From the NCBI GenBank assembly GCA_023544525.1, contig JAMJFU010000001.1, positions 1,259 to 65,258 of the forward strand: 64,000 nucleotides of DNA, written 5' to 3'. This stretch comes from Anaerolineae bacterium (GTDB lineage Bacteria > Chloroflexota > Anaerolineae > JAAYZQ01). A program made the position numbers and the translations under genes. The notes under the pieces are model-generated. The model did not search any database, was not told the DNA's origin, and saw only the letters and a list, made by a program, of their open reading frames with translations. Position 1 is the stretch's first letter; every line of letters starts with the position of its first letter. This document shows, in pieces, positions 4,484 through 52,707 of the stretch.

Positions 4484-4630
4484 CGTGCACGCGGCACGTC
4501 TTCCTAGCCGCAGGCGCAGCCTGCCAGGGCGCCAGTCCCTTCCGGCCGGCGCGCCTCCTGGAGTCCGGGGCGGCTGCCCTGGGCTCGGCCAGATACTTGC
4601 TTGTCCGCCTTCGTGGCCACAGAGGACGAC

Positions 4631-4659
4631 TTGACAAGCAACTATTCTTCCTGTATTAT
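4631..4659 (+). promoter_or_regulatory. Sigma70-like promoter TTGACA-17-TATTAT upstream of receiver gene
   Basis: Consensus -35 TTGACA (4631-4636) and -10 TATTAT (4654-4659); 9-bp inverted repeat (4597-4606 / 4633-4641) overlaps the -35. Confidence 0.5.
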
Positions 4660-4823
4660 TGGCTGATGTGAGTTTGTTCAAAATGGAGCAATCGCCTGCC
4701 AGGGACGAGGGCTGTTTGCCTGTGGACGATTCCGTGGAAAAGCCACCGGAGCCCGCCACACTCCTGAAAGAGGGAGAGGCTTTTTTGGTGGAAGCAGGGA
4801 AACCCAAGAAGGAGCGCGGAACC

Positions 4824-5228
4824 ATGTCTGAAGAGAAGCGACATATCCTGGTGGTTGACGACGACGTCCAACTGGTAGACTCGGTCACAACCCTGTTGGA
4901 GAGTGTGGGCTATTCGGTGTCCTATGCCTACCATCCCGAGAAGGCCCTCGACCTGGCCAAGGAAACAAGGCCGGACCTGATCTTGCTGGACATTATGTTC
5001 GCGGGACCGCCAGGGCCCGATGGAGTCGAGGTCTCGAGACAGATCCATCGCGACCCCGAGATCCAGGACATCCCCGTGATCATGCTGTCGGGGGTCAAAA
5101 AGGTCCTGGACATGCCGGTCCACCTGGCACACGACGAGGACTATATGCCGGTCAAGGCCTTTCTGGAGAAGCCCTTCGAGCCAGAGCAGCTGCTGGCCGA
5201 GGTAGAAAAGGTCCTGGGGTCACTTTAA
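4824..5228 (+). CDS. Single-domain CheY-like response regulator receiver (atypical insertion after phospho-acceptor Asp)
   Basis: ILVVDDD...LILLDIMF...PVIMLSG receiver signature; AAGGAG RBS 8 nt upstream of ATG 4824 (longer ORF from 4659 lies upstream of predicted TSS). Confidence 0.75.
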   Translation: MSEEKRHILVVDDDVQLVDSVTTLLESVGYSVSYAYHPEKALDLAKETRPDLILLDIMFAGPPGPDGVEVSRQIHRDPEIQDIPVIMLSGVKKVLDMPVHLAHDEDYMPVKAFLEKPFEPEQLLAEVEKVLGSL

Positions 5229-5233
5229 CTTGT

Positions 5234-5263
5234 TTGACGCCTTTCCTGGTTTCATGTTATAAT
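5234..5263 (+). promoter_or_regulatory. Sigma70-like promoter TTGACG-18-TATAAT upstream of hdr-like operon
   Basis: Sequence motifs at 5234-5239 and 5258-5263, ~110 nt upstream of ATG 5377. Confidence 0.5.
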
Positions 5264-5376
5264 GCGCTGGTTGTTCACCTGGCAATCATACTTGACATGT
5301 CCTGAACCGGCTGCACATCGCATCCGACAACAACGCCGCAGCTTGTTGTAGTCTCTGCTGACCAGGAGGAGGGATC

Positions 5377-6561
5377 ATGGCGGATCGTCTGACCGGTTCC
5401 GAGCAGGACCTCTTTGCCGCAGTGCTGGGCCTGCGGGGTGGTGAGCGGATCAGCGCCTGCTACCAATGCGGGACCTGCTCCGGCTCCTGCCCTACTGCTG
5501 CGATCATGGAGTACAATCCCCGCCGCATCCTCCACATGCTGCGCCTGGGTCTGGGGGAACGCGTGCTCAAGAGCCAGGCAATCTGGCTATGCACTGCCTG
5601 TTACTCCTGTACCGCCCGCTGCCCCCGCGAGATCAAGATCAGCGATGCTATGCTCAGCTTGCGCCGCCTCACAATAGACCGCGGGCTGGATCTGCCCGCG
5701 AACCTGGCGACCATGCGGGATACGGTGACCCACCACCACAACATCTCGGGCGATGACAATGCCAGCCGCCTCATCTGGAGTGACAACCTGGAGGAGGGTG
5801 CTCTTGCCTTCCGGCAGAAGCGCCGTGCAGAGGTTGCTTTCTACGTCGGCTGCGTGGCCTCCTTCTACCCCATGGTCTATGGCATTCCCCAGGCTATGGT
5901 CCAGGTGATGGACCGGGCGGGTGTGGATTTCGCTGCACTTGGCGGTGAGGAATGGTGCTGCGGTTACCCTCTGTACACCGCCGGGATGGAGGGCCTGCTC
6001 GCCGAGCTGATGGCCCATAACGTGGCGCGCGTGCAGGAGATGGGGGCCAAAACCCTGGTGACGACCTGCCCCTCCTGCTATTACACCTGGTCGCACCTCT
6101 ATCCGGAGTTGGAATCCAAGCCCCTTGGCTTCGAGGTGCTGCATGCCTCGCAGTTTCTGGCCCGGCTGGTGGGCGATTCCGCTGTGAAGCTGGGAAGCTT
6201 TGAGCAGACGGTGACCTATCACGATCCGTGCGATCTGGGGCGCAAGAGCGGCATTTTTGACGCCCCGCGGCAGGTCATCGAGGCGATGCCGGGCATTGAG
6301 TTTCGGGAGATGGATGCCCATCGTGAGAACGCTCTTTGCTGCGGCGGGGGAGGGGACGTCCAGATGGTGGACGAACGGGTGACTGAGACGGTCGCTTCGC
6401 GGCGTCTTGGCCAGGCCCAGCAGACGGGCGCGCGGGTGATCCTTTCGGCCTGCCAGCAGTGTAAGCGGACCTTGATGGCTGCCACCCGCCGGGACAAGGT
6501 ACGTATGCGGGTCATGGACCTCTCTGAATTGGTTTTGCGGGCGATGGAGGGCGGAGCATGA
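5377..6561 (+). CDS. Heterodisulfide reductase-like Fe-S protein, HdrC/HdrB fusion (HdrD/GlpC-like; 2x[4Fe-4S] ferredoxin + two CCG domains)
   Basis: CYQCGTCSGSCP and CTACYSCTARCP ferredoxin motifs followed by Cys-rich CCG-type segments (EEWCCGYP, CPSCYY, HDPCDLG, CCGGGG). Confidence 0.75.
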   Translation: MADRLTGSEQDLFAAVLGLRGGERISACYQCGTCSGSCPTAAIMEYNPRRILHMLRLGLGERVLKSQAIWLCTACYSCTARCPREIKISDAMLSLRRLTIDRGLDLPANLATMRDTVTHHHNISGDDNASRLIWSDNLEEGALAFRQKRRAEVAFYVGCVASFYPMVYGIPQAMVQVMDRAGVDFAALGGEEWCCGYPLYTAGMEGLLAELMAHNVARVQEMGAKTLVTTCPSCYYTWSHLYPELESKPLGFEVLHASQFLARLVGDSAVKLGSFEQTVTYHDPCDLGRKSGIFDAPRQVIEAMPGIEFREMDAHRENALCCGGGGDVQMVDERVTETVASRRLGQAQQTGARVILSACQQCKRTLMAATRRDKVRMRVMDLSELVLRAMEGGA

Positions 6562-24741: not shown

Positions 24742-27210
24742 TCACTCCACAGTCACAAGATCGAACGACTCGTGGCTATTGCCGTCCAGATCTTGGACGA
24801 CAAAGCCGACGATATACTGGCCGGGCGCCGCGTCCAGGGCCTCCCAGGAGAACATCTGGTCACCGAAGGTCAGGGTGCCACCTTGCAGCGTAACCGTATC
24901 CTCCACCCTGCCGCGCTGGTCGAGGTCCATCCACGTGTCCAGCACGGTGAAGGTGTCGCCGGTACTGGGGATGATCTCGCGGGGCGCGCCTGTGCCGCCT
25001 TCGCCGGTGAAGCCAAAGACCTGCTTCAGCACGCCATCGCTGAAATAGAGCCGGGCATAGCGTGACTGGCCGTCGTCGGCATAGGTGTAGGTGCCCTCGA
25101 CGGTGTACACGGCCTCCTCAGGCGAAGCACCATAGACCTCGGGACGGAAGAGCGCCACCACCGAATCGGAGCCGTCGTCGATGGCAAACACGATGGGCTC
25201 CCACTCGAACTCCATCGTAAACTCGCCCTCATCCCCCCAATCGGGGTAGTACACGCCGTCGATCTCCCGGGTCTCGTCACTCTCCAGATAGTCCTGGTCG
25301 GCCACAAAGATAGAGTTGGACTCGGCATCAAAAAAGCCGACAAAGAGCAGCACATAGCCAACATTGTCGCCGCGGATGTCGGTGCTCAACCGGATCGTCT
25401 GACCGGGCGCAACCACAGCAGCAGAGAGGGTGACCGGGTCAACCTCGATTTCGCCAACCCCTGGCCCGGCGATCGTCGCGTCGCGCTCAGGCACGGCAAC
25501 GACGCCTGCAGCTGGCTCGAACGCTTTGCCGGTGTAGTGGTACGCCAAAAAGTCATCCCACAGCGATTCGACCGCAAAACGCCGGGCGACGGTGGTATAT
25601 GAGTCGTAGCCGGCGTAGCGTGACTGGTAGAGCTGGGAGTTGGGAAAGTAGATGGAAATGCCACCGGCCGCCGGCTTCTTGCTGCCGTGCTTCTCGGTGA
25701 CAATGGCCCGATCCAGCGCAGCCAGCAGCTCATCCGCTGCCTGGGCGACCTCGCGGCTGCCACTTTCCGCCTTCAGCAGTTGGGCCAGGTTGCCCAGGTC
25801 GAGGTAAGAGGGCGGCACCTCTTTGCCAAAGACGCTGGTGAACGATTGGGCGTAGGACCGGGCCTTGGCCACGTCGTCCTGATTGGCTCCCTGCAGCGCG
25901 TAGGCCAGGTCATTGGTCCGATTCATCAGCTCCGGCATCGCTTGCAGGTCGACAGCGGCCAGCGTCACGCTGCCCTGCATCTGCTGTGCCAGTTGTTCGG
26001 CTGAGGGCACGCCAAAGAGGCTGGACAGGGGCGAGCCACGCGACAGGAACTCGGCCCGGGCCTGATCGTCCACGATGCGCTGGTCTTCCTGGATGTAGCT
26101 CTCCACGATGATGCGACCCAACTCTGCGCCATCCATGCCGGGATCATCGCGTAACGCGCCCAGGAAGCCGGTATAGGCCCAACCCAGGGCCGGTTCCGTC
26201 TCCTGCGAGACCACCGCATAACGGGCATGCGGGGCTAGTGCAGCCAAGACCTCGAGATGCCCCATCAGGCAGGCGTCCAGGCCGATCAGCTCGAATTGGT
26301 CCAGCCCCGCCCGATCGCGTATCTCCTGCAGGGCTTCGTCCATTTCCATCAAGAAAAGCTGGTCGCCCATGTCGGCGAGAGCGACGTTATCGTCTCCCTT
26401 GCCACCAGGCGCGGGGTCGGTCCAGCCGCCAGGCCAGCCCATGCCGTGGTCGGAGAGGATCAGCACGTGTTTGTCGGCAGGAAAGGTCTCGATGGCCCAC
26501 GTGACAAAGTCTACCAGCGTGTCACCGTCGGCCATGTTGACCTCGCCGAGGTCGGCCACCTCTTGCGAAGATACGCTCTTCAGATCGGGGTCGAGCGTTA
26601 GGTAGAAACGCTTGGTAGAGGACCAATCCCCGTCTCCCCGATAGCCCGTCCGGAAACGGTCCACCTGGGCCACGATATGCACCCGGTCGCTGGAACCGAT
26701 GCGCTCGGCCTCGTTCAGGTCCAGGTAGATGTCCTGCTCCAGGATCTTGTCATCAGCGTCCTGGTAGAGCATGACCAGCCAGGTCTGTCCCCCTTCCGAC
26801 GACAGCGATGGAGGGACAAAAGGCCTGGGCGTCCTGGTTGGCGCAGAGATCACCGTGGGCTGGGACACGACATCCGGCTGCGTCGGAACGTTGACGACGA
26901 GGCTTTCGTCGGCAGTGGGCGGGGCGAGAAAGACCACGTACACGCAGGCACAAACGGCCAGGATGGCCACAAGGCCAATGATCATTGGCAGCGACAGTTT
27001 GCCGCCGCCCAGCAGCTTCAGCAGGCCGTCTATCGGGATCTGCGGGGCGCTCCCGGTGGGCCGGCTCGTGGCTCCCTGGCTGGAGGGCCTGGCCGGCTGC
27101 TGGGCATCTCTGGGTCTACCGCGGCTGGGCGCACTCGCCCTCTCACGCTCGCCAGACTGCCCAGGTTCGGTGCGCCGCCGGCGCCTGGCCTCCACCTTCT
27201 TTTTGGTCAT
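24742..27210 (-). CDS. Clostripain (C11)-family cysteine peptidase, N-terminally membrane-anchored, with large C-terminal extension
   Basis: Basic N-terminus + TM helix + Pro/Thr-rich linker; catalytic-dyad-like motifs LILSDHGMGW and LIGLDACLMG. Confidence 0.55.
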   Translation of the reverse strand: MTKKKVEARRRRRTEPGQSGERERASAPSRGRPRDAQQPARPSSQGATSRPTGSAPQIPIDGLLKLLGGGKLSLPMIIGLVAILAVCACVYVVFLAPPTADESLVVNVPTQPDVVSQPTVISAPTRTPRPFVPPSLSSEGGQTWLVMLYQDADDKILEQDIYLDLNEAERIGSSDRVHIVAQVDRFRTGYRGDGDWSSTKRFYLTLDPDLKSVSSQEVADLGEVNMADGDTLVDFVTWAIETFPADKHVLILSDHGMGWPGGWTDPAPGGKGDDNVALADMGDQLFLMEMDEALQEIRDRAGLDQFELIGLDACLMGHLEVLAALAPHARYAVVSQETEPALGWAYTGFLGALRDDPGMDGAELGRIIVESYIQEDQRIVDDQARAEFLSRGSPLSSLFGVPSAEQLAQQMQGSVTLAAVDLQAMPELMNRTNDLAYALQGANQDDVAKARSYAQSFTSVFGKEVPPSYLDLGNLAQLLKAESGSREVAQAADELLAALDRAIVTEKHGSKKPAAGGISIYFPNSQLYQSRYAGYDSYTTVARRFAVESLWDDFLAYHYTGKAFEPAAGVVAVPERDATIAGPGVGEIEVDPVTLSAAVVAPGQTIRLSTDIRGDNVGYVLLFVGFFDAESNSIFVADQDYLESDETREIDGVYYPDWGDEGEFTMEFEWEPIVFAIDDGSDSVVALFRPEVYGASPEEAVYTVEGTYTYADDGQSRYARLYFSDGVLKQVFGFTGEGGTGAPREIIPSTGDTFTVLDTWMDLDQRGRVEDTVTLQGGTLTFGDQMFSWEALDAAPGQYIVGFVVQDLDGNSHESFDLVTVE

Positions 27211-27634: not shown

Positions 27635-28027
27635 GGTCATCCCTCCTTGTGCAAGATGTGTTGGTAAGAGATCTCGTGGCGCGTCCCAGCCCCCCAGCGA
27701 GAAGTTACGGCAAAGGCCTGTCCTTGGACGTGGTGCAAAGTCTGGCTGCGTTGAATATCCAGCAGCACTGGCAGAGATCATACCACCAAAACCGCTGGAG
27801 GGCAAAAACTGCCTCGCGCGGATTGTGCCAATCCGCGCGAGGGCGTAGGTCCCAGGCAGGAGCGTTCAACTTGTAGGAGAGGTCTCCACGCTGTGTCGCG
27901 GCAGCCAGCCGGGCAGCACTCTAGGTCCACGCGGGGCAACAGCTCTCAGATTGGCAGCCAGCCATGATCGTGGTGTAATGATAAGGACAGCAAGATTATC
28001 ATACAAGGATAGCCAGCGGCAGCGGCC

Positions 28028-29572
28028 TCAGCCCTCAGCTGCCCAGTCCCGCAGGAACTGGACCAGGAGCCGGACCCCGAACCCGGTTCCGCCCTTTTGC
28101 AGATAGGGCGGGCGCTTGGGCCCGCCTGGCCGTTCTTCGAAGGCCATGCCCGCGATGTCGACGTGCGCCCAGGGGTAGCCGTCGGCGAACTGCTTGAGGA
28201 ACATGGCCGAGGTACCCACCCCGCCGTCGCGACCACCGCTGTTGGACAGGTCGGCAGTGAGGCTCTCGATTTTGTCGAGGTAGTCATCATAGAGCGGCAT
28301 GGGCCATACCCGCTCGCCGCTGGCCTCGCTGGCGGACTGCAGGCGCGATGACAGTTCCTCGTCGGTGCCAAAGAGACCCGCAGCAACACCCCGCCCCAGG
28401 GCCACGACGCAGGCACCGGTCAGCGTGGCCAGATCGACCACCGCTCGCGGTTTGAACTGAGCCGCATAGGCCAGCGCATCGGCCAGGATCAGGCGTCCTT
28501 CGGCATCGGTGCTGATGACCTCGATCGTCTTGCCGTTCATCGCCTCCAGGACATCGCCGGGCTTGTAGGCCTGGCCGCTGGGCATATTCTCGGTGGCAGG
28601 CACCAGGCCGACGACATGGAGGGAAAGATCCAGTTGGCCGACGGCGTACATGGCCGCCAGCACCGCCGCACCGCCGCCCATATCGCCCCGCATGCGGTCC
28701 ATCTTTTCCGATGGCTTGAGGGAGATCCCACCCGTATCAAAGGTGATGCCTTTGCCGACGATCACGACCGTGTCCAGATCGGGCCGCTCCGGCTTGTGCT
28801 CGAGGACAATAAACGCAGCCGGTTCGTCGCTGCCCTGGGCCACACCCAGGAACGCGCCCATCTCGAGCTCGTCGGCGTCCTCTTCCGAGAGGATCTGGCA
28901 GCGCATCTCGTCGAACTCGCCGGCGATCTCCATGGCCAGCTCGGCCAGGTCGGTCGGCGTGGCATAGTTGGACGGCCGGTTGACCAGGTCCCGGGCCAGG
29001 CAGGCCGCCTCGGCCACGATCTCGCCCGCCAGCGCGCCGGCTTCGACCTCGGCCACCTTATCCGGATCGAACTGGACCAGCGTGAATGTCTCCGGATCCA
29101 GCCGGTCGGGGGGCTTGTTCTTCAACTCCAGGTAGCGGTACAGGCCCAGGATGGTGCCCTCAACCACCGCCTGCGAGGCCACATCCAGCGCAAAGCCTCC
29201 GGCGCCCGCGCCGTGGACGATGCTGCTGAAGGACCTGACGCCCAGCTCGCGGGCTTTTCTTGCCGCGGTCGCTGCGGCTTCGCGGACGGCCTGCAGGGAA
29301 AAGCTCTCCTGGGGCCCCAACCCGACCACGGCCACGCGGTCGGCCGGGATCGCACCGCGGGGATAGAGGACGAGCACCTCGCCCTTTTTCCCTCGCAGGT
29401 CGCCAGCGGCGATCGCTTCGCGGATGGCGCCATTCAAGGCCTGATCGACTGCGCCAGTCGCACCGCCTGGCGTTTGCACATCCTCAAACAGGTTGACGAC
29501 GATCAACTCGTCTTCCCTGTTCTGGATCCCATCGGCGACAATCCTGATGTCCATCATTTCCCCCCTATTCAA
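28028..29572 (-). CDS. pepA: Leucyl aminopeptidase (M17)
   Basis: NTDAEGRL-type motif (VISTDAEGRLILADALAYA), M17 metal-binding residues. Confidence 0.85.
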   Translation of the reverse strand: MNRGEMMDIRIVADGIQNREDELIVVNLFEDVQTPGGATGAVDQALNGAIREAIAAGDLRGKKGEVLVLYPRGAIPADRVAVVGLGPQESFSLQAVREAAATAARKARELGVRSFSSIVHGAGAGGFALDVASQAVVEGTILGLYRYLELKNKPPDRLDPETFTLVQFDPDKVAEVEAGALAGEIVAEAACLARDLVNRPSNYATPTDLAELAMEIAGEFDEMRCQILSEEDADELEMGAFLGVAQGSDEPAAFIVLEHKPERPDLDTVVIVGKGITFDTGGISLKPSEKMDRMRGDMGGGAAVLAAMYAVGQLDLSLHVVGLVPATENMPSGQAYKPGDVLEAMNGKTIEVISTDAEGRLILADALAYAAQFKPRAVVDLATLTGACVVALGRGVAAGLFGTDEELSSRLQSASEASGERVWPMPLYDDYLDKIESLTADLSNSGGRDGGVGTSAMFLKQFADGYPWAHVDIAGMAFEERPGGPKRPPYLQKGGTGFGVRLLVQFLRDWAAEG

Positions 29573-29599: not shown

Positions 29600-30199
29600 C
29601 TACAACAGCGGGACCAGGTCGTCCCGCAAGATCCTCAACGCCCTCTGCAGCCGGACCTGGTTCTCCGGCTGGTTGGGCCACAGGCTGGCCCCCGACGGAT
29701 GGGGCAAGGGCAGGACGTAGCGGCCCTCGTGCTCAAAGACCTGGCCTACGGCATCCGTCAAGCGTAACTTTCGTTCCAGCAAGGTCTCGATGGCCAGCCC
29801 GCCCACGGCCAACATGACCTTGGGCCTGACCAACTGAATCTCCCGGTCCAGGAAGGGCCGGCAGAGCTTCTGTTCGGCGCGGGTTGGGCGGCGATCTCCC
29901 TTGCCGCCAGGGTGCTTGCCGGGGTAACACTTGGTCACAGCGGTCATGTAGAACGACCGCCGGAATTGATCCTCATCGAGGCCCGCCTCGGCCAGCCACT
30001 GAAAGAGGCGCGTACCCGACGAGGCGTTAAACGGCCGCTTGACCTGCGCCTCGGTCACTCCCGGCGCCTGGCCCACCAGCATCAAAGGCGTCGGTGCCGG
30101 GCCAGAGAACACGGCGCCAGGCGTGATTTCGTAGCCCGCCTCCAGGCACTTGCGGCAGGCACGCATCTCCGCCCAGAGGTCCGCCGCTGCGCCTGGCAC
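29600..30199 (-). CDS. Uracil-DNA glycosylase, family 4-like
   Basis: LVGQAPG...RPF..SG..L and HPSGASLWPN motifs. Confidence 0.7.
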   Translation of the reverse strand: MPGAAADLWAEMRACRKCLEAGYEITPGAVFSGPAPTPLMLVGQAPGVTEAQVKRPFNASSGTRLFQWLAEAGLDEDQFRRSFYMTAVTKCYPGKHPGGKGDRRPTRAEQKLCRPFLDREIQLVRPKVMLAVGGLAIETLLERKLRLTDAVGQVFEHEGRYVLPLPHPSGASLWPNQPENQVRLQRALRILRDDLVPLL

Positions 30200-30202
30200 C
30201 GG

Positions 30203-30613
30203 CTAATCGTCCTCGTAGGGCTCATCGACGATCCGCACGATCGTCACGAGCTCGGTTGTCAGGCTGGCCGCAACGGAGCAGTAGCCTTCTTCGGCCAGCC
30301 GGATCGAATCTTCCACCGCCTTCTGCTTCAGGTTCCGTCCCCGGACCACCCATTCCATGACGATCTTTTTAATCGTCCAGGGCGGGTCAGGCTCGTTCTC
30401 CTTGGTGACCGATACCTCGATGCCTGTGAATTTCTGGCGTTTCTTCTCGAGGATGTGCACCACGTCGATACCAGCACATCCGACCAACGAAGCCAAAAAC
30501 ATGTCCGGTGGTTTCATCCCCTCCCCCTCCTGGTCGGTCACCACGACATGACCTTTCTCGTCCGAGGCAAGGAACTGGGTCCCTCCCGTCCATTTCACCT
30601 TCACACCTGGCAT
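30203..30613 (-). CDS. OsmC/Ohr-family protein
   Basis: OsmC fold motifs (LASLVGCAGIDVV, CSVAASL); AGGAGGGA RBS at internal ATG 30613. Confidence 0.65.
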   Translation of the reverse strand: MPGVKVKWTGGTQFLASDEKGHVVVTDQEGEGMKPPDMFLASLVGCAGIDVVHILEKKRQKFTGIEVSVTKENEPDPPWTIKKIVMEWVVRGRNLKQKAVEDSIRLAEEGYCSVAASLTTELVTIVRIVDEPYEDD

Positions 30614-30641
30614 TGTCCCTCCTGTCTGCATTCTTGGTAGA

Positions 30642-31661
30642 TTAGGGCGAAAAGAAAAGCATGCCCACGCCCAGTGCCTCGAGGGCCTCCTGCGCGTAGT
30701 AGCGCACCAGGTAGCTGGGATCCTCGAGCACACCGAACAAGGGCCCGATCGCCCTCTGAGACTTGATGCGGCCCAGGGCGCGGACCGCCAAGAGACGTGT
30801 GTGGGGATCCTCCGCCTCGAGCCTTCCGGCCAAGACCTGGACGGCAGGCTCGCCGATCATGCTCAGCGCGTCGGCTGCGATACTGGCGACAAAGGCGCTC
30901 TCGTCTCCCAGCAGGGTGGCCAGGGCCGGAGCCGCTTCCCCCGCTCGCAGGCGGCCGAGGGCCAGGGCGGTGCAGGCCCGCACATCAGGCTCCGGATCGC
31001 CCAGCACACCGACCAAAGCGGATACGGCCGCCTCTCCGCCGATCTCGGCCAGGGCACGGGCCGCCCACCAGCGCGTGTTGGCGTTGCCCCCGCTCAACAT
31101 CTCGACCAGGGGCGGGACAGCTTCCTGCCCAAAACGCCGCAGCGCCAAAGCGGCGGCCTCGCGACGCTCGTCATCCGCAGTGTCCAGGATCTCGAGCAGC
31201 TCAACCAGCTCTTTGTTTTCAAGCATGACCTTTTCCGCGCCCAGAGATATAGCAAACCAGCCATCGCCGGGCAGAACGGGCACATATACGAGGTGTCCCG
31301 GGCACCGGCAATCAGAGGCACCAAAACCAGGCACCACGATCCGGGCGCCAGGCAACCGGCCAAGTGTCAGGGCCCAACTGCACTCCAGTTTCTCACTGGT
31401 CTGCCGCACCCAGGCACCGCTCCAGGCAGCTCGTTCCCGAAAGAAATCGATGTGCCAGTGGGCCTTCTTATCCGCTCCCAGCCTGCGTCTGTGTCGCCGC
31501 AGACGGGCCAGCAGGCCACCCGGCCCGCGTGCGCTGCCGCTGTAGAGATACCAGCCAGCAGGCATCTGGAACGTGCCCAGACGCCCAATGGAAACAGCCT
31601 GTGGCTGGTCCAGTGACAGCGCCAGCACGTAGGCTCCCATTATACCCGATCCTGTGCGCAT
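30642..31661 (-). CDS. DUF123 (GIY-YIG-like) domain fused to PBS-lyase/HEAT-like repeats
   Basis: N-terminal YLYSGSARG...RLRRHRRR...HWHIDFF matches DUF123 signature; C-terminal tandem ~30-aa HEAT-like repeats (VR..AARALG/ALGRL). Confidence 0.55.
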   Translation of the reverse strand: MRTGSGIMGAYVLALSLDQPQAVSIGRLGTFQMPAGWYLYSGSARGPGGLLARLRRHRRRLGADKKAHWHIDFFRERAAWSGAWVRQTSEKLECSWALTLGRLPGARIVVPGFGASDCRCPGHLVYVPVLPGDGWFAISLGAEKVMLENKELVELLEILDTADDERREAAALALRRFGQEAVPPLVEMLSGGNANTRWWAARALAEIGGEAAVSALVGVLGDPEPDVRACTALALGRLRAGEAAPALATLLGDESAFVASIAADALSMIGEPAVQVLAGRLEAEDPHTRLLAVRALGRIKSQRAIGPLFGVLEDPSYLVRYYAQEALEALGVGMLFFSP

Positions 31662-31804: not shown

Positions 31805-32884
31805 TCAGCCGGCTGCCCCACGGGCCCCAGTACGTGCCTGTAGCTTTTCGGCCAATGCCTGGGCAGTAGCTGCCATCTTTTGCAGCTCACGGGCCAGTTC
31901 GCGGCCCTCGTTGATGACGGCAGCGACTTCCTCCGAGTCCTTGCCGGGGGCCGGGGGGGAGGCGGGCTCAGCGGACACCTTGCTCCTGAGCTCCTCGATG
32001 ACCTGGGCATTACTCACGGCTGCCGCCACAAAACTGGCCAGCAGGCCCAACTGGTAGCGGTCGTTCTCACCGAAGGGGCGGGACGCCTTGGCATCCACCC
32101 CCAGGACGCCCATGACCTGATCATGCAGGCGCAAGGGCACCGCCAGGCGGGATGCGCCCTTTTCGCCATCGTTTTCGCGCTCGGCAATCACCGCGCGGCC
32201 TGTGCGGGCCACCTGGCTGGCCAGGCGGTCTGTGGACCGCTGCTGCACACACCGGGCCCGCACGTCGGCCGGGCCACGGATGGCCCGCACCTCCAGCTGG
32301 TCGGTGCCGGACGCCAACAGGAGGAGTTGGCCGCCCTCCGCTTCCGTGAGGTAGATGGCCGCTTCGACCGCGACCCGCATGACCTCGTCGGGATCCCGCA
32401 GAGAAGTCAGGGCGTGGCCAATGCCGCACAGGCTGTGCAACTGGCGTACGCGTTCCTCGAGGTGCTCGCTGACTTTGATATCCTCCTGGAGGTCGGAGGT
32501 CTCCCGGCGGAGCCGCCGCTCGATGAGGGCTCGTTCCACCGACTCGAGCATCTCCTTGACGTCATAGGGCTTGATGATATAATCTCGAGCCCCCAGGCGG
32601 AAGGCCTGGATGGCCGTCTGCTCGGAACCATAAAACGTGGTGAGGATGACCGGCGTGTCGGCCCCGGCCTTGCGCAGAGCCGCCATCAGGTCCAGGCCGG
32701 ACATCCTCGGCATCTTGAGGTCGGTGATGATGAGGTCTGGTCTTTCGGCCAGCGCCTTGTCCAAGGCTTGCTTGCCGTCGACAGCGGTGATGACGTCGTA
32801 TCCCTCCGGCCGAAGGACGCTGTTCGCCAGGAACAGCAGGTTTTCCCGGCGGTCGTCGGCAACCAGGATTCTCTCCCCGCTCAT
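31805..32884 (-). CDS. Response regulator receiver + GAF domain protein
   Basis: ILVADDRRENL...LIITDLKMP receiver; downstream GAF-like region; AAGGAGC RBS at internal ATG 32884. Confidence 0.7.
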   Translation of the reverse strand: MSGERILVADDRRENLLFLANSVLRPEGYDVITAVDGKQALDKALAERPDLIITDLKMPRMSGLDLMAALRKAGADTPVILTTFYGSEQTAIQAFRLGARDYIIKPYDVKEMLESVERALIERRLRRETSDLQEDIKVSEHLEERVRQLHSLCGIGHALTSLRDPDEVMRVAVEAAIYLTEAEGGQLLLLASGTDQLEVRAIRGPADVRARCVQQRSTDRLASQVARTGRAVIAERENDGEKGASRLAVPLRLHDQVMGVLGVDAKASRPFGENDRYQLGLLASFVAAAVSNAQVIEELRSKVSAEPASPPAPGKDSEEVAAVINEGRELARELQKMAATAQALAEKLQARTGARGAAG

Positions 32885-33061
32885 CTCTGCTCCTTGTACT
32901 GGTGATATGCGTGCTCGTTTCTGTCGACCACAAAGAGTATAACAGATTTCTTGACTCCTGGCAATCAAGTCGGTATTCCGATCCAGGCTACCCGTCTTTG
33001 GTGGGCGCTGGTGTGTGACCAGTGGCTGGCACCCCGGGAAGTGTCCCCGGCGAGGGCCAGG

Positions 33062-33342: not shown

Positions 33343-34386
33343 ATGCATTTGGATTACCAGCCGATCACGTTGAACTTGGAGACCCCGTTCCGCATCGCCC
33401 ATGGCACCAGCCTGGTGCGCGAAAACGTCCTGGTCCGCATCCGTGCCGCAGGCCTCGAAGGCCTCGGCGAGGCGGCCCCGGTGCGCCAACACCACGAGAC
33501 CCAGGCAGGTGTGATGGACTACCTGGCAGGCCTGGAGTTGCCTGGAGATCCCTTTCTCCTCGAGGAGGTAATGGCTTCCCTGCCGCCGGGCTCCCAGGCG
33601 GCCAAAGCAGCCATCGACATGGCGCTCCACGACCTGCAGGGCAAGATGCTGGGTGTGCCACTCTATCGCCTCTGGGGCTTGAACCCGGCCCGGGCTCCTG
33701 AGACCTCCTTCACCCTGGGATTGGGCCCTGTGGCTGAGGTCGAGGCCAAGGCCCGAGCCGCAGCCGAGCGTTTTTCGATCCTCAAGCTCAAGCTGGACGC
33801 CGACGAGGCGGGCTGCCTGGCGCTCGTGCGAGCAGTCCGGGCGGCTGTGGACAGCCGGCTGGTGGCCGACGCCAACTGCGCCTGGACCGTCGACCAGGCC
33901 CTGCGGCTGATCCCGGCCCTGGCCGACCTGGGCCTGGAGTGGATCGAACAGCCACTGGCGGAAGAAGACCTGGAGGGTTTGCGGAAGCTGCACCCCGAAT
34001 CACCATTGCCCATCTTTGCCGACGAGCCGGTGCGCACAGCGCGCGACATCCCGCGGTTGGCCGGCTGCGTGGACGGGGTGAACATCAAGGTCATGAAGGC
34101 TGGTGGGCTGCGCGAGGCGCAGCGAATGATCGCCGTGGCCCGCGCTCACGACCTGCAGGTGATGCTCGGCTGTATGATGGAGACCTCGGTGGGGATCACG
34201 GCCGCTGCCCACCTGGCACCGCTGGTCGATTGGGCAGACCTGGACGGCAACCTGACGGTCACCAACGACCCGTTCATCGGCGTCTTGGTTGAGAAGGGCA
34301 AGCTAATCCTGCCTGACGGTCCAGGCCTGGGTGTCAGGCCCCGGCCCGCGCCCGCTGGGACAGAGGACTCGGGGGCAAAGACATGA
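33343..34386 (+). CDS. Enolase-superfamily enzyme (MR/MLE subgroup; dipeptide epimerase-like)
   Basis: MR_MLE N- and C-domain pattern, KxK...D...E...D metal ligand spacing. Confidence 0.65.
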   Translation: MHLDYQPITLNLETPFRIAHGTSLVRENVLVRIRAAGLEGLGEAAPVRQHHETQAGVMDYLAGLELPGDPFLLEEVMASLPPGSQAAKAAIDMALHDLQGKMLGVPLYRLWGLNPARAPETSFTLGLGPVAEVEAKARAAAERFSILKLKLDADEAGCLALVRAVRAAVDSRLVADANCAWTVDQALRLIPALADLGLEWIEQPLAEEDLEGLRKLHPESPLPIFADEPVRTARDIPRLAGCVDGVNIKVMKAGGLREAQRMIAVARAHDLQVMLGCMMETSVGITAAAHLAPLVDWADLDGNLTVTNDPFIGVLVEKGKLILPDGPGLGVRPRPAPAGTEDSGAKT

Positions 34387-35456
34387 TCGTCATCGACGGC
34401 TCGTATGGCGAAGGCGGCGGGCAGGTCCTGCGGACCAGCCTGGCCCTGTCGGCCATCACGGGCCAACCCGTGCGCATCGAGCACATCCGCGCCGGCCGCC
34501 GCAAGCCAGGGCTCATGCCCCAGCATCTGACCGGGGTGCGGGCGGCGACCCGCGTATGCGATGCCCAGGTGGAGGGTGCCAGGCTCAACTCGCTGGAGCT
34601 GGCCTTTGCACCGCGGTCGGCGCCCAGAGCAGGGACGTACACCTTTGACGTAGCCCAGGCTGCCAAGGGGGGCAGCGCGGGCTCGGTGAGCCTCATCTTC
34701 CAGACGGTGCTCCTGCCCCTGGCCCTGGCGGAGGGCACCTCAGAGCTCACGCTGCGGGGTGGCACCCACGTTGCCTGGAGCCCACCCTACGACTACCTGA
34801 AGCGCGTCTACCTGCCCACCCTGGCCCGCATGGGCGTCCAGGCCAAGGTCAACATCCGCAAGTGGGGCTGGTACCCCATCGGTGGCGGCGAGGTCGAGGC
34901 GACCATCCACGGCCTGGGGCGGGCCAGCCTGGAAGCCATGGACCTTTCTCGACGCGGGGATCTACTCCGCGTACGGGGCTTGTCGGTCAGCAGCAACCTG
35001 CCCAAGCACATCCGCGTCCGCCAGGAGGGAGCGGCGTTGCAGGCACTGCGCTCCAACGGGGTCAATGCCCGCATCGATGCGATCGACGCCCCCTCCAAGG
35101 GCAAGGGCACCGCCGTGTTTCTGTGGGCCGACTTTGAGAATGCCCACGCGGGTTTCACCTCGTTGGGCGAGCTGGGCAAACCGGCCGAACAGGTTGCAGA
35201 AGAGGCCGCACAGGAGCTGGTCGAGTTCCTGCAGGCCCACGCTGCCCTGGATCGCCACCTGGCCGATCAGGTCGTGCTGCCCATGGCCCTGGCTGAGGGC
35301 AGGTCGTCCTTTACCACGGAAGCGGTCACCCAGCACCTGCTGACCAACGCCTGGGTGGTGAACCAATTCTTCTCCGGCCGGGTCCGTGTAGACGGACAGG
35401 AAGGCGAGCCGGGGGAGTGCTCCATAGAGGGAGTTGGCCGGGTGGCGGCGGATTAG
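34383..35456 (+). CDS. rtcA: RNA 3'-terminal phosphate cyclase
   Basis: IDGSYGEGGGQVLRTSLALS...HIRAGR N-terminus closely matches RtcA; ATGA overlap with upstream gene. Confidence 0.85.
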   Translation: MIVIDGSYGEGGGQVLRTSLALSAITGQPVRIEHIRAGRRKPGLMPQHLTGVRAATRVCDAQVEGARLNSLELAFAPRSAPRAGTYTFDVAQAAKGGSAGSVSLIFQTVLLPLALAEGTSELTLRGGTHVAWSPPYDYLKRVYLPTLARMGVQAKVNIRKWGWYPIGGGEVEATIHGLGRASLEAMDLSRRGDLLRVRGLSVSSNLPKHIRVRQEGAALQALRSNGVNARIDAIDAPSKGKGTAVFLWADFENAHAGFTSLGELGKPAEQVAEEAAQELVEFLQAHAALDRHLADQVVLPMALAEGRSSFTTEAVTQHLLTNAWVVNQFFSGRVRVDGQEGEPGECSIEGVGRVAAD

Positions 35457-52500: not shown

Positions 52501-52587
52501 GCCGACGTGGCGGAAATGGCAGACGCGACAGACTTAGGATCTGTTACCCTTCGGGGTGTGGAGGTTCAAATCCTCTCGTCGGCACCA
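52501..52587 (+). tRNA. tRNA-Leu (anticodon TAG), long variable arm, CCA encoded
   Basis: Acceptor GCCGACG/CGTCGGC, anticodon stem ACAGA/TCTGT, loop CTTAGGA, T-loop TTCAAAT. Confidence 0.85.
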
Positions 52588-52632
52588 GCTATCCTGGCTT
52601 TCCGACCTGGCGTCGGTGATGGCGAATGACAA

Positions 52633-52707
52633 GGGCCCGTGGCCTAGCGGGAAGGCGCCTGCTTTGCACGCAGGAGATCGCCGGTTCGAATCCGGCCGGG
52701 TCCACCA
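52633..52707 (+). tRNA. tRNA-Ala (anticodon TGC), CCA encoded
   Basis: Acceptor GGGCCCG with G3:U70 alanine identity pair, anticodon loop TTTGCAC, T-loop TTCGAAT. Confidence 0.85.

Follow-up and report, generated by a model that had tools for sequence, protein, structure and literature searches.

A predicted GIY-YIG-type nuclease domain of the DUF123 family, fused to or encoded beside an alphaRep-type HEAT-repeat protein in Chloroflexota

A 64,000-nucleotide stretch of an Anaerolineae genome (Chloroflexota; assembly GCA_023544525.1, contig JAMJFU010000001.1, positions 1,259 to 65,258 of the forward strand), hereafter the window, carries on its minus strand a gene (30642..31661) coding for a DUF123 domain fused to a run of HEAT-like repeats. 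Among its relatives the same two modules occur either as a single chain or as adjacent genes, and this recurrent pairing identifies the DUF123 domain and its HEAT family as a conserved two-part unit. The reading we favour, with a probability of about 0.6, is that the unit pairs a GIY-YIG-type endonuclease with a HEAT subunit dedicated to it, which either sets the specificity of the nuclease or regulates it. Bearing on this reading are the identities of the two domains, the intact invariant residues of the nuclease domain, the fused and split pairing, the co-directional run in which the gene stands and the opposite charges of the two modules; these modules probably form a stable 1:1 unit.

The open reading frame (ORF) specifies 339 aa and closes with a stop codon at 30642-30644. 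Translation probably begins at a conserved ATG, at 31640, and then yields a protein of 332 aa, as in the NCBI annotation; this form, whose numbering is used here for all residues of the fusion protein, is 100% identical to an NCBI protein (P0001) named 'DUF123 domain-containing protein' from an Anaerolineae metagenome-assembled genome (MAG). It comprises three segments, all on the minus strand: the DUF123/COG1833 GIY-YIG-type nuclease domain (31227..31640; aa 1-138); six alphaRep/PBS-lyase-type HEAT-like repeats in the 31-residue alphaRep register, delineated from Pfam, PDB matches and Foldseek (30675..31214; aa 143-322); and a hydrophobic C-terminal tail of ten residues, LGVGMLFFSP (30645..30674), which is kept in fused and split HEAT proteins alike. 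A preliminary description of the window, made from the letters alone, had recognized an N-terminal DUF123 domain by the motifs YLYSGSARG, RLRRHRRR and HWHIDFF, followed by C-terminal tandem HEAT-like repeats. All three motifs are in the translation and the profile scan that it had suggested bears out both assignments: DUF123 (PF01986) matches over its full profile and far above the gathering threshold (88.5 bits, cut-off 25, E 4e-25; residues 31-126, profile positions 1-95 of 95), HEAT_2 (PF13646) matches in three stretches (108.1 bits, cut-off 27.7, E 3e-31), HEAT_PBS (PF03130) reaches 46.5 bits (cut-off 20.9), and the HEAT and HEAT_EZ profiles are likewise above threshold. An AlphaFold2 model of the full protein, built from 96 homologues (mean predicted local distance difference test score, pLDDT, 95.6; predicted template-modelling score, pTM, 0.75), lays it out as an alpha/beta domain (aa 1-138), a four-residue linker and paired helices (aa 143-322), with the C-terminal tail modelled less surely (pLDDT block means 82 and 58).

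The DUF123 domain is predicted to be a diverged GIY-YIG nuclease fold. Modelled alone it reaches a pLDDT of 96.4, and the model places its elements in the order strand 2-10, inserted hairpin, strand 29-37, helix 42-51, helix 63-68, strand 72-80 and helix 86-93, which, as modelled, follows the GIY-YIG order apart from an insertion that separates strands one and two. Across 115 DUF123 sequences 22 columns are invariant, and the window protein has the invariant residue in 22 of 22. These columns, whether the alignment holds 96 or 115 sequences, include Y31, Y33, G35, S36, A37, R46, H50 and W62 and, further along, H63, D65, E86, D110, C111, C113 and H116; conservation is 90% or more at Y4, H61 and C87, which are also present. 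The predicted catalytic residues, Y4, Y33, R46, H50, E86 and D110, are all intact, and H61, H63, C87, C111, C113 and H116 make up a His/Cys cluster. The published features of COG1833 are two Tyr residues on the strands, an Arg/His helix, a metal-binding Glu, an Asp for the usual Asn and a His/Cys-rich cluster (Dunin-Horkawicz, Feder and Bujnicki, 2006; PMC1564403), and at the level of the alignment the residues of the window protein match them, including the Arg-x3-His helix and the Asp-for-Asn replacement. Direct structural support for the fold is modest. A profile comparison with I-TevI set Y33, R46 and H50 opposite Y17, R27 and H31 at low probability; a sequence search of the PDB with the domain found no relative, the best match (E 0.16) being clearly spurious; and a Foldseek search of the PDB with the model found no significant match. 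Of the GIY-YIG-like active site for which structure prediction had been proposed as a check, the predicted catalytic residues are present in the sequence, and the model has no significant resemblance to a PDB structure. The domain is basic (charge +9, pI 10.35), as it is across 125 homologues.

The HEAT repeats, in turn, belong to the thermostable alphaRep/PBS-lyase class, which is the basis of the designed alphaRep binders. A sequence search of the PDB with this domain returned alphaRep structures at E 1e-16 to 6e-60, along with MTH187 (1te4) and CpcE/F (5n3u), and Foldseek gave target-normalised template-modelling scores of up to 0.79 against PDB entries. CpcE/CpcF, NblB, MTH187 and the synthetic alphaRep binders thus share the repeat class of the module, but it differs from CpcE/CpcF and NblB in having its own W-W-x-x-R patch, a GVGxVFFxP tail and a tie to DUF123. 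The NCBIfam scores for the bilin-lyase equivalogs are far below their cut-offs (CpcF 54 vs 220, CpcE 50.2 vs 330, NblB 49.8 vs 300), and the link of the family is with DUF123, not with genes for phycobiliproteins.

Unlike the nuclease domain, the HEAT domain is acidic (net charge -10, pI 4.6; mean -13.3 in the 125 homologues). In 38 aligned sequences its conserved residues are mostly the structural signature of the repeat, with one family-specific addition: an invariant R-W-W-A-x-R in repeat 2 (aa 190-195; 31056-31073), followed by further conserved residues in later repeats. In the repeat alignment the invariant Trp-Trp occupies alphaRep positions 22 and 23, with the final Arg of the motif at position 26. 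The variable positions of alphaReps form the concave, ligand-contacting face in complexes, and position 23 is normally small (PMC3754942). Read from the sequence, positions 18, 19, 22, 23, 26 and 30 of the six repeats, which are concave, are mostly hydrophobic or aromatic with a net charge near zero, so that the concave face looks suited to the specific binding of some protein, peptide or individual ligand and does not resemble a basic DNA-tracking groove. The tail has the family consensus GVG-[MI]-V-[FY]-[FLV]-x-P. We considered the tail of the window protein, GVGMLFFSP, as a clamp-binding or PIP motif and rejected it by eye, as it has no Gln and the spacing is wrong.

These properties bear directly on the role that the preliminary description had suggested: an AlkC/AlkD-type HEAT scaffold with a concave basic surface for damage recognition, joined to DUF123 for incision and acting with a uracil-DNA glycosylase (UDG). 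Spelled out, the scaffold would position DUF123 to incise lesions, or the abasic sites that the UDG makes, as a dedicated base-excision or nucleotide-incision module. AlkC and AlkD (PF08713, DNA_alkylation) are, as here, alpha-solenoids of short helical repeats, and the invariant concave Trp-Trp could stack on bases. However, they are basic whereas this module is acidic with a largely hydrophobic concave face; moreover, the fusion protein has no Pfam match to PF08713 at E <= 0.01, and AlkD is absent from the top 50 Foldseek PDB matches of the HEAT domain. Neither the proposed scaffold type nor the basic surface is thus recovered, and a lesion scaffold of this kind appears unlikely, a judgement to which the gene neighbourhood, considered below, also contributes.

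The pairing of the two modules is conserved well beyond the window. A search with the whole protein gave 368 matches, of which the best 120, all with at least 62% identity, carry both DUF123 and HEAT; many of these fusions are named 'Uri superfamily endonuclease / HEAT repeat protein' by JGI, and the architecture is common to more than 120 protein clusters. When the DUF123 domain was run in full against 1.84 billion cluster representatives, 5005 clusters matched at E <= 0.001, and among the top 150 of these 5005 are seven long DUF123+HEAT_2 fusion proteins from separate 50%-identity clusters. The fusion first noticed in the window is thus real and conserved. The two modules are also found split into adjacent genes, in L017/L018 (two independent assemblies), L019, L020, L105 and L106; the downstream 188-aa protein of L020 has no Pfam match on record, yet clearly belongs to the same HEAT family. 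Wherever the source of a pair is named, it is Chloroflexota (Anaerolineae or 'Chloroflexia' MAGs).

For a wider view 80 DUF123 loci were gathered from metagenomes with the DUF123 profile, the window's clade being taken as the loci with about 58-64% identity over the nuclease domain. Within this clade the HEAT module is present in all sampled loci. Among 70 more distant loci with room downstream, a count that rests mostly on the metagenome sample and also covers L005-L011 and L019-L020, HEAT is a gene of its own directly downstream in 16, is fused in 7 and is missing from the other 47; L106 adds a 17th distant split pair, giving 24 distant DUF123-HEAT loci in all. Many of the split pairs overlap as ATGTCTGA, with the HEAT start codon just ahead of the DUF123 stop, and an overlap of the form ATGTCTGA or ATGTGTGA is seen in L033, L036, L038, L041, L042, L045, L056, L064 and L065, a sign that the two genes are translationally coupled. 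The pair is embedded in two unrelated gene orders, one with a response regulator carrying a GAF domain, OsmC, UDG and PepA, and the other with an S58 peptidase, a tetratricopeptide-repeat (TPR) protein, a Trm112-like protein and a small membrane protein. Fused and split forms each occur in both groups; hence, fusion or fission has happened more than once.

Gene calls require some care in this family. In L102 (4635-5633) the ORF is fused and uninterrupted and the database had called its last 210 codons only; P0396 is a truncated gene call within a fused ORF. Several of the stand-alone HEAT proteins in the protein database are gene-calling artefacts, and their count was not used. L103 (about 4570-5603, on a long contig) has a fused ORF with a frameshift near the N-terminus, which is either an assembly indel or a pseudogene.

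A nuclease gene with an acidic partner directly downstream and a stop/start overlap also recalls the layout of toxin-immunity and nuclease-inhibitor pairs. This raises the alternative that the HEAT protein is a cognate inhibitor, immunity-like or a DNA mimic, which masks the DNA-binding face of the nuclease until a signal arrives, the fusion being auto-inhibited. The opposite charges (+9 against -10), the conserved concave patch on the partner, and the short linker and pTM of 0.75, which suggest a packed arrangement, would all fit such a mechanism. However, most DUF123 genes have no partner, both among the distant loci (47/70) and in the archaeal family (PMC1564403), which argues that the nuclease is not intrinsically toxic. 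Further, the loci lie among housekeeping genes (pepA, serS, rpsB-tsf, cysS) and not in defence or toxin islands; PADLOC assigned the locus to no defence system, the HEAT matches being weak and generic (at best 40.8 bits, against a model of 1972 positions), with none for OsmC or UDG; and stable fusions in many lineages would be unusual for an inhibitor. On balance, we consider an inhibitory HEAT partner improbable.

The favoured reading of a nuclease with a dedicated HEAT subunit also has to contend with several observations. The 47 of 70 distant DUF123 loci without an adjoining HEAT gene are joined by six DUF123-only genome loci without a HEAT neighbour, labelled Chloroflexota, Dehalococcoidaceae, Alphaproteobacteria/Rhodospirillaceae, Pelagibius and Enterobacteriaceae, and together they indicate that the nuclease in general needs no HEAT partner. 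Conversely, the HEAT module can persist without an adjoining nuclease: L104, on a 1.1-Mb contig (ERZ25039459 contig_7359), has an intact HEAT gene (5001-5624) with the W-W patch and a GVGMVYFSP tail in the order HEAT-OsmC-UDG-PepA, with no DUF123 remnant and 14 bp separating it from a divergent rtcA. HEAT may accordingly have a role of its own there, or pair with a DUF123 protein encoded elsewhere. The co-directional run in the window also includes PepA, so sharing the run need not mean sharing a function. Finally, the literature searched yielded no biochemical data on any DUF123 protein.

Should the favoured reading hold, the basic DUF123 domain would bind and cut nucleic acid, and the acidic HEAT solenoid would not act as a general DNA clamp. 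Instead, the patch conserved on its concave face (W-W-x-x-R, A-C, D, R, Y, E) would set the specificity of the nuclease or regulate it: the patch could hold the nuclease domain itself, or dock the nuclease onto another protein or a specific ligand. In the lineage of the window, the unit would probably be co-transcribed with an OsmC-type peroxidase, an iron-sulphur (Fe-S) UDG-like glycosylase and PepA. COG1833/DUF123 is a GIY-YIG family without an experimentally shown substrate about twenty years after its definition; the concave patch of the HEAT partner is the obvious candidate for a specificity determinant, and the fused form offers a ready-made single-chain complex for biochemical and structural work.

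The run itself lies on the minus strand and starts with the fusion gene, after which come OsmC, UDG and pepA, with gaps of 3-28 nt. The OsmC-family protein (30203..30613, 136 aa, within the ORF 30203..30733) begins 28 nt downstream of the fusion gene; it matches OsmC (PF02566) at 66.6 bits in Pfam, and NCBI has an identical protein of 136 aa under the name 'OsmC family protein'. It is followed by the UDG-superfamily gene (29600..30199) and by the last gene of the run, that for the leucyl aminopeptidase PepA of the M17 family (28028..29572; Peptidase_M17, 399 bits). Between pepA and mscL lies a terminator-like hairpin on the minus strand (27812..27842; 14-bp stem with 10 GC pairs, T-run), which is likely to mark the end of a DUF123HEAT-OsmC-UDG-pepA transcription unit; together, the short gaps and the terminator make co-transcription of these four genes likely. 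Upstream of the fusion gene, across a gap of about 145-165 nt, Pfam identifies a response regulator with a GAF domain (31805..32968, minus strand). This neighbour is frequent but not constant in the clade, being found in L001, L003, L014-16, L026, L028, L102 and L105 and absent upstream in L002, L004, L017, L103 and L104.

Wherever a locus of the window's clade extends far enough, the HEAT module is followed by OsmC. Of the 16 loci with enough sequence, with the window counted and the near-identical L014 and L015 treated as a single locus, 14 have UDG after OsmC: the window, L001-L004, L014, L017, L022, L025, L026, L028 and L102-L104. The exceptions are L016 (fused) and L105 (split), where OsmC is followed directly by pepA. 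The outer flanks of the clade loci vary (e.g. in L002, L004, L017 and L103), such that DUF123-HEAT, OsmC and UDG keep together somewhat more than their surroundings do. This contiguity across differing flanks speaks for the lesion scaffold discussed above, as do the retention of HEAT-OsmC-UDG in L104 even without DUF123 and the fusion of archaeal COG1833 to endonuclease III (EndoIII) in Methanococcales (PMC1564403). Against it, UDG is missing not only from L016 and L105 but from all 24 distant DUF123-HEAT loci, whose available sequence has neither an OsmC nor a UDG homologue, and tblastn found no Nth homologue in the window or near about 100 DUF123 loci, with an E. coli Nth query that may have reduced the sensitivity. 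With UDG and OsmC confined to one clade and no Nth nearby, the sole constant is the DUF123-HEAT pair. The earlier suggestion that the fusion protein acts with UDG fits the adjoining genes of most of the clade and not those of the distant loci: UDG is a lineage-specific neighbour and not a constant companion, a weak link.

Many of the distant DUF123-HEAT loci share a different order, which runs from an S58 peptidase and a TPR protein through two small proteins, one Trm112-like (81 aa) and one of the membrane (76 aa), to DUF123 and HEAT. The 81-aa protein is a conserved Trm112-like zinc ribbon that precedes DUF123(-HEAT), the 76-aa protein is a conserved two-helix membrane protein whose gene overlaps the DUF123 start, and ahead of both there is often a TPR lipoprotein together with an S58 (DmpA-type) peptidase. 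These small proteins are encoded in L019-L021, L031, L033, L038, L041, L042, L045, L048, L056, L058, L065, L067, L070, L093, L106 and others.

This second order, with a Trm112-like zinc ribbon, a small membrane protein and no repair genes nearby, lends some colour to the notion that the unit acts on RNA, or otherwise outside DNA repair, and that UDG and OsmC are neighbours by descent only; the RNA 3'-phosphate cyclase RtcA also recurs near the locus in the window's clade. However, to our knowledge all characterised GIY-YIG enzymes cut DNA, and RtcA in the window is on the opposite strand with other genes between. The literature points both ways: possible RNA roles have been noted for some prokaryotic GIY-YIG proteins, while the archaeal EndoIII fusion points to DNA repair (PMC1564403). 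We accordingly hold an RNA-directed or non-repair function to be very unlikely.

The UDG-superfamily protein of the window (199 aa) is best called a putative family-4-like Fe-S glycosylase. It matches the Pfam UDG profile (PF03167) at 103.2 bits and is named 'uracil-DNA glycosylase family protein' in NCBI; its nearest solved structures are family-4 UDGs and UdgX (E 1e-11 to 7e-15; 1ui0 at E 7e-15). The Fe-S cysteines C15, C18, C90 and C113 are present, with C90 and C113 aligning with Cys residues of the Thermus thermophilus UDG (1ui0), and the four Cys are conserved at equivalent positions in 11 orthologues (L001-L004, L014, L015, L017, L022, L025, L026 and L028), as is an HPSGAS motif. The consensus of motif A in family-4 UDGs is GE(A/G)PG. 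The window protein and 11 of 11 orthologues have GQAPG, where 1ui0 has GEGPG at the aligned position, and the NCBIfam scores are below their cut-offs both for UDG_fam4 (TIGR00758; 83.6 bits, cut-off 125.3) and for Arch_udg (70.8 bits vs 250). Thus, of the neighbours initially described as OsmC and a family-4 UDG, OsmC and the UDG superfamily stand, but membership of family 4 proper does not. The GQAPG variant may mark a distinct glycosylase subfamily with a different specificity.

A role of the DUF123-HEAT unit in base-damage repair is plausible: the probably co-transcribed run fits it without establishing it, but the evidence is weak, since the link to a glycosylase is confined to one clade. 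Incision at damaged bases has been proposed for COG1833 from the archaeal EndoIII fusion (Dunin-Horkawicz et al., 2006; PMC1564403). A bolder version, which we regard as doubtful, would make DUF123-HEAT a hitherto unrecognized nuclease holoenzyme, a prokaryotic counterpart of Slx1-Slx4 or ANKLE1, whose Trp-Trp/Arg patch reads a lesion, a DNA structure or a partner and which carries out strand incision in Anaerolineae base repair together with the Gln-variant glycosylase and OsmC. Were it a repair nuclease, base-damage repair in bacteria would gain a new incision activity; if it is not, an ordinary uncharacterised domain fusion is what remains.

Comparison with known systems clarifies what is distinctive here. 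Orthodox COG1833 proteins of Archaea and some Bacteria have the same catalytic domain, with the invariant Tyr/Tyr/Arg/His/Glu, the Asp for Asn and the His/Cys cluster, but are single-domain proteins of about 150 aa, whereas here a 190-aa HEAT solenoid is fused or translationally coupled (PMC1564403). The published architecture table of COG1833 lists the orthodox form and the EndoIII fusion only (Dunin-Horkawicz, Feder and Bujnicki, 2006; PMC1564403). The latter, represented by MJ0613 and MMP0538 of Methanococcales, likewise couples DUF123 to a second module and associates it with a base-excision enzyme (PMC1564403); however, there the glycosylase itself is fused, whereas here the HEAT module is non-enzymatic and the UDG is encoded two genes downstream in one clade only. 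Slx1-Slx4 and ANKLE1/LEM-3 similarly join GIY-YIG nucleases to scaffolds that are helical or built of repeats, a likeness that we treat as analogy: they differ in GIY-YIG subfamily, in repeat type (ankyrin or the Slx4 CCD, as against HEAT) and in domain order, and their partners have no detectable sequence relationship to the HEAT module. The DUF123-HEAT architecture is already in public databases under automatic names. The preliminary description had not recognized the fusion as described, and in agreement with this the literature searched contains no paper that we could find on the fusion or the pairing; MJ0613, MMP0538 and 'Uri superfamily endonuclease' lead back to the 2006 COG1833 paper only. 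One use of 'DUF123' refers to the family of a predicted serine hydrolase (PDB entry 3BDV); it is probably a typo and was set aside.

Some further features of the window are recorded here. On the strand opposite to the locus, a gene of the MR_MLE group (enolase superfamily) overlaps the start of rtcA by 4 nt (33343-35456, plus strand); this MR_MLE-rtcA pair recurs near the DUF123-HEAT locus in L003, L014, L102 and L103, and no adjoining rtcB was seen. Downstream of mscL, a minus-strand gene (24742-27210) codes for an 822-aa clostripain-family (C11) peptidase, in which a membrane helix is predicted and the N-terminal region is long and rich in Arg, Pro and Ser. The only Rfam/ARAGORN matches in the window are the adjoining tRNA-Leu(TAG) and tRNA-Ala(TGC) on the plus strand (52501-52707).

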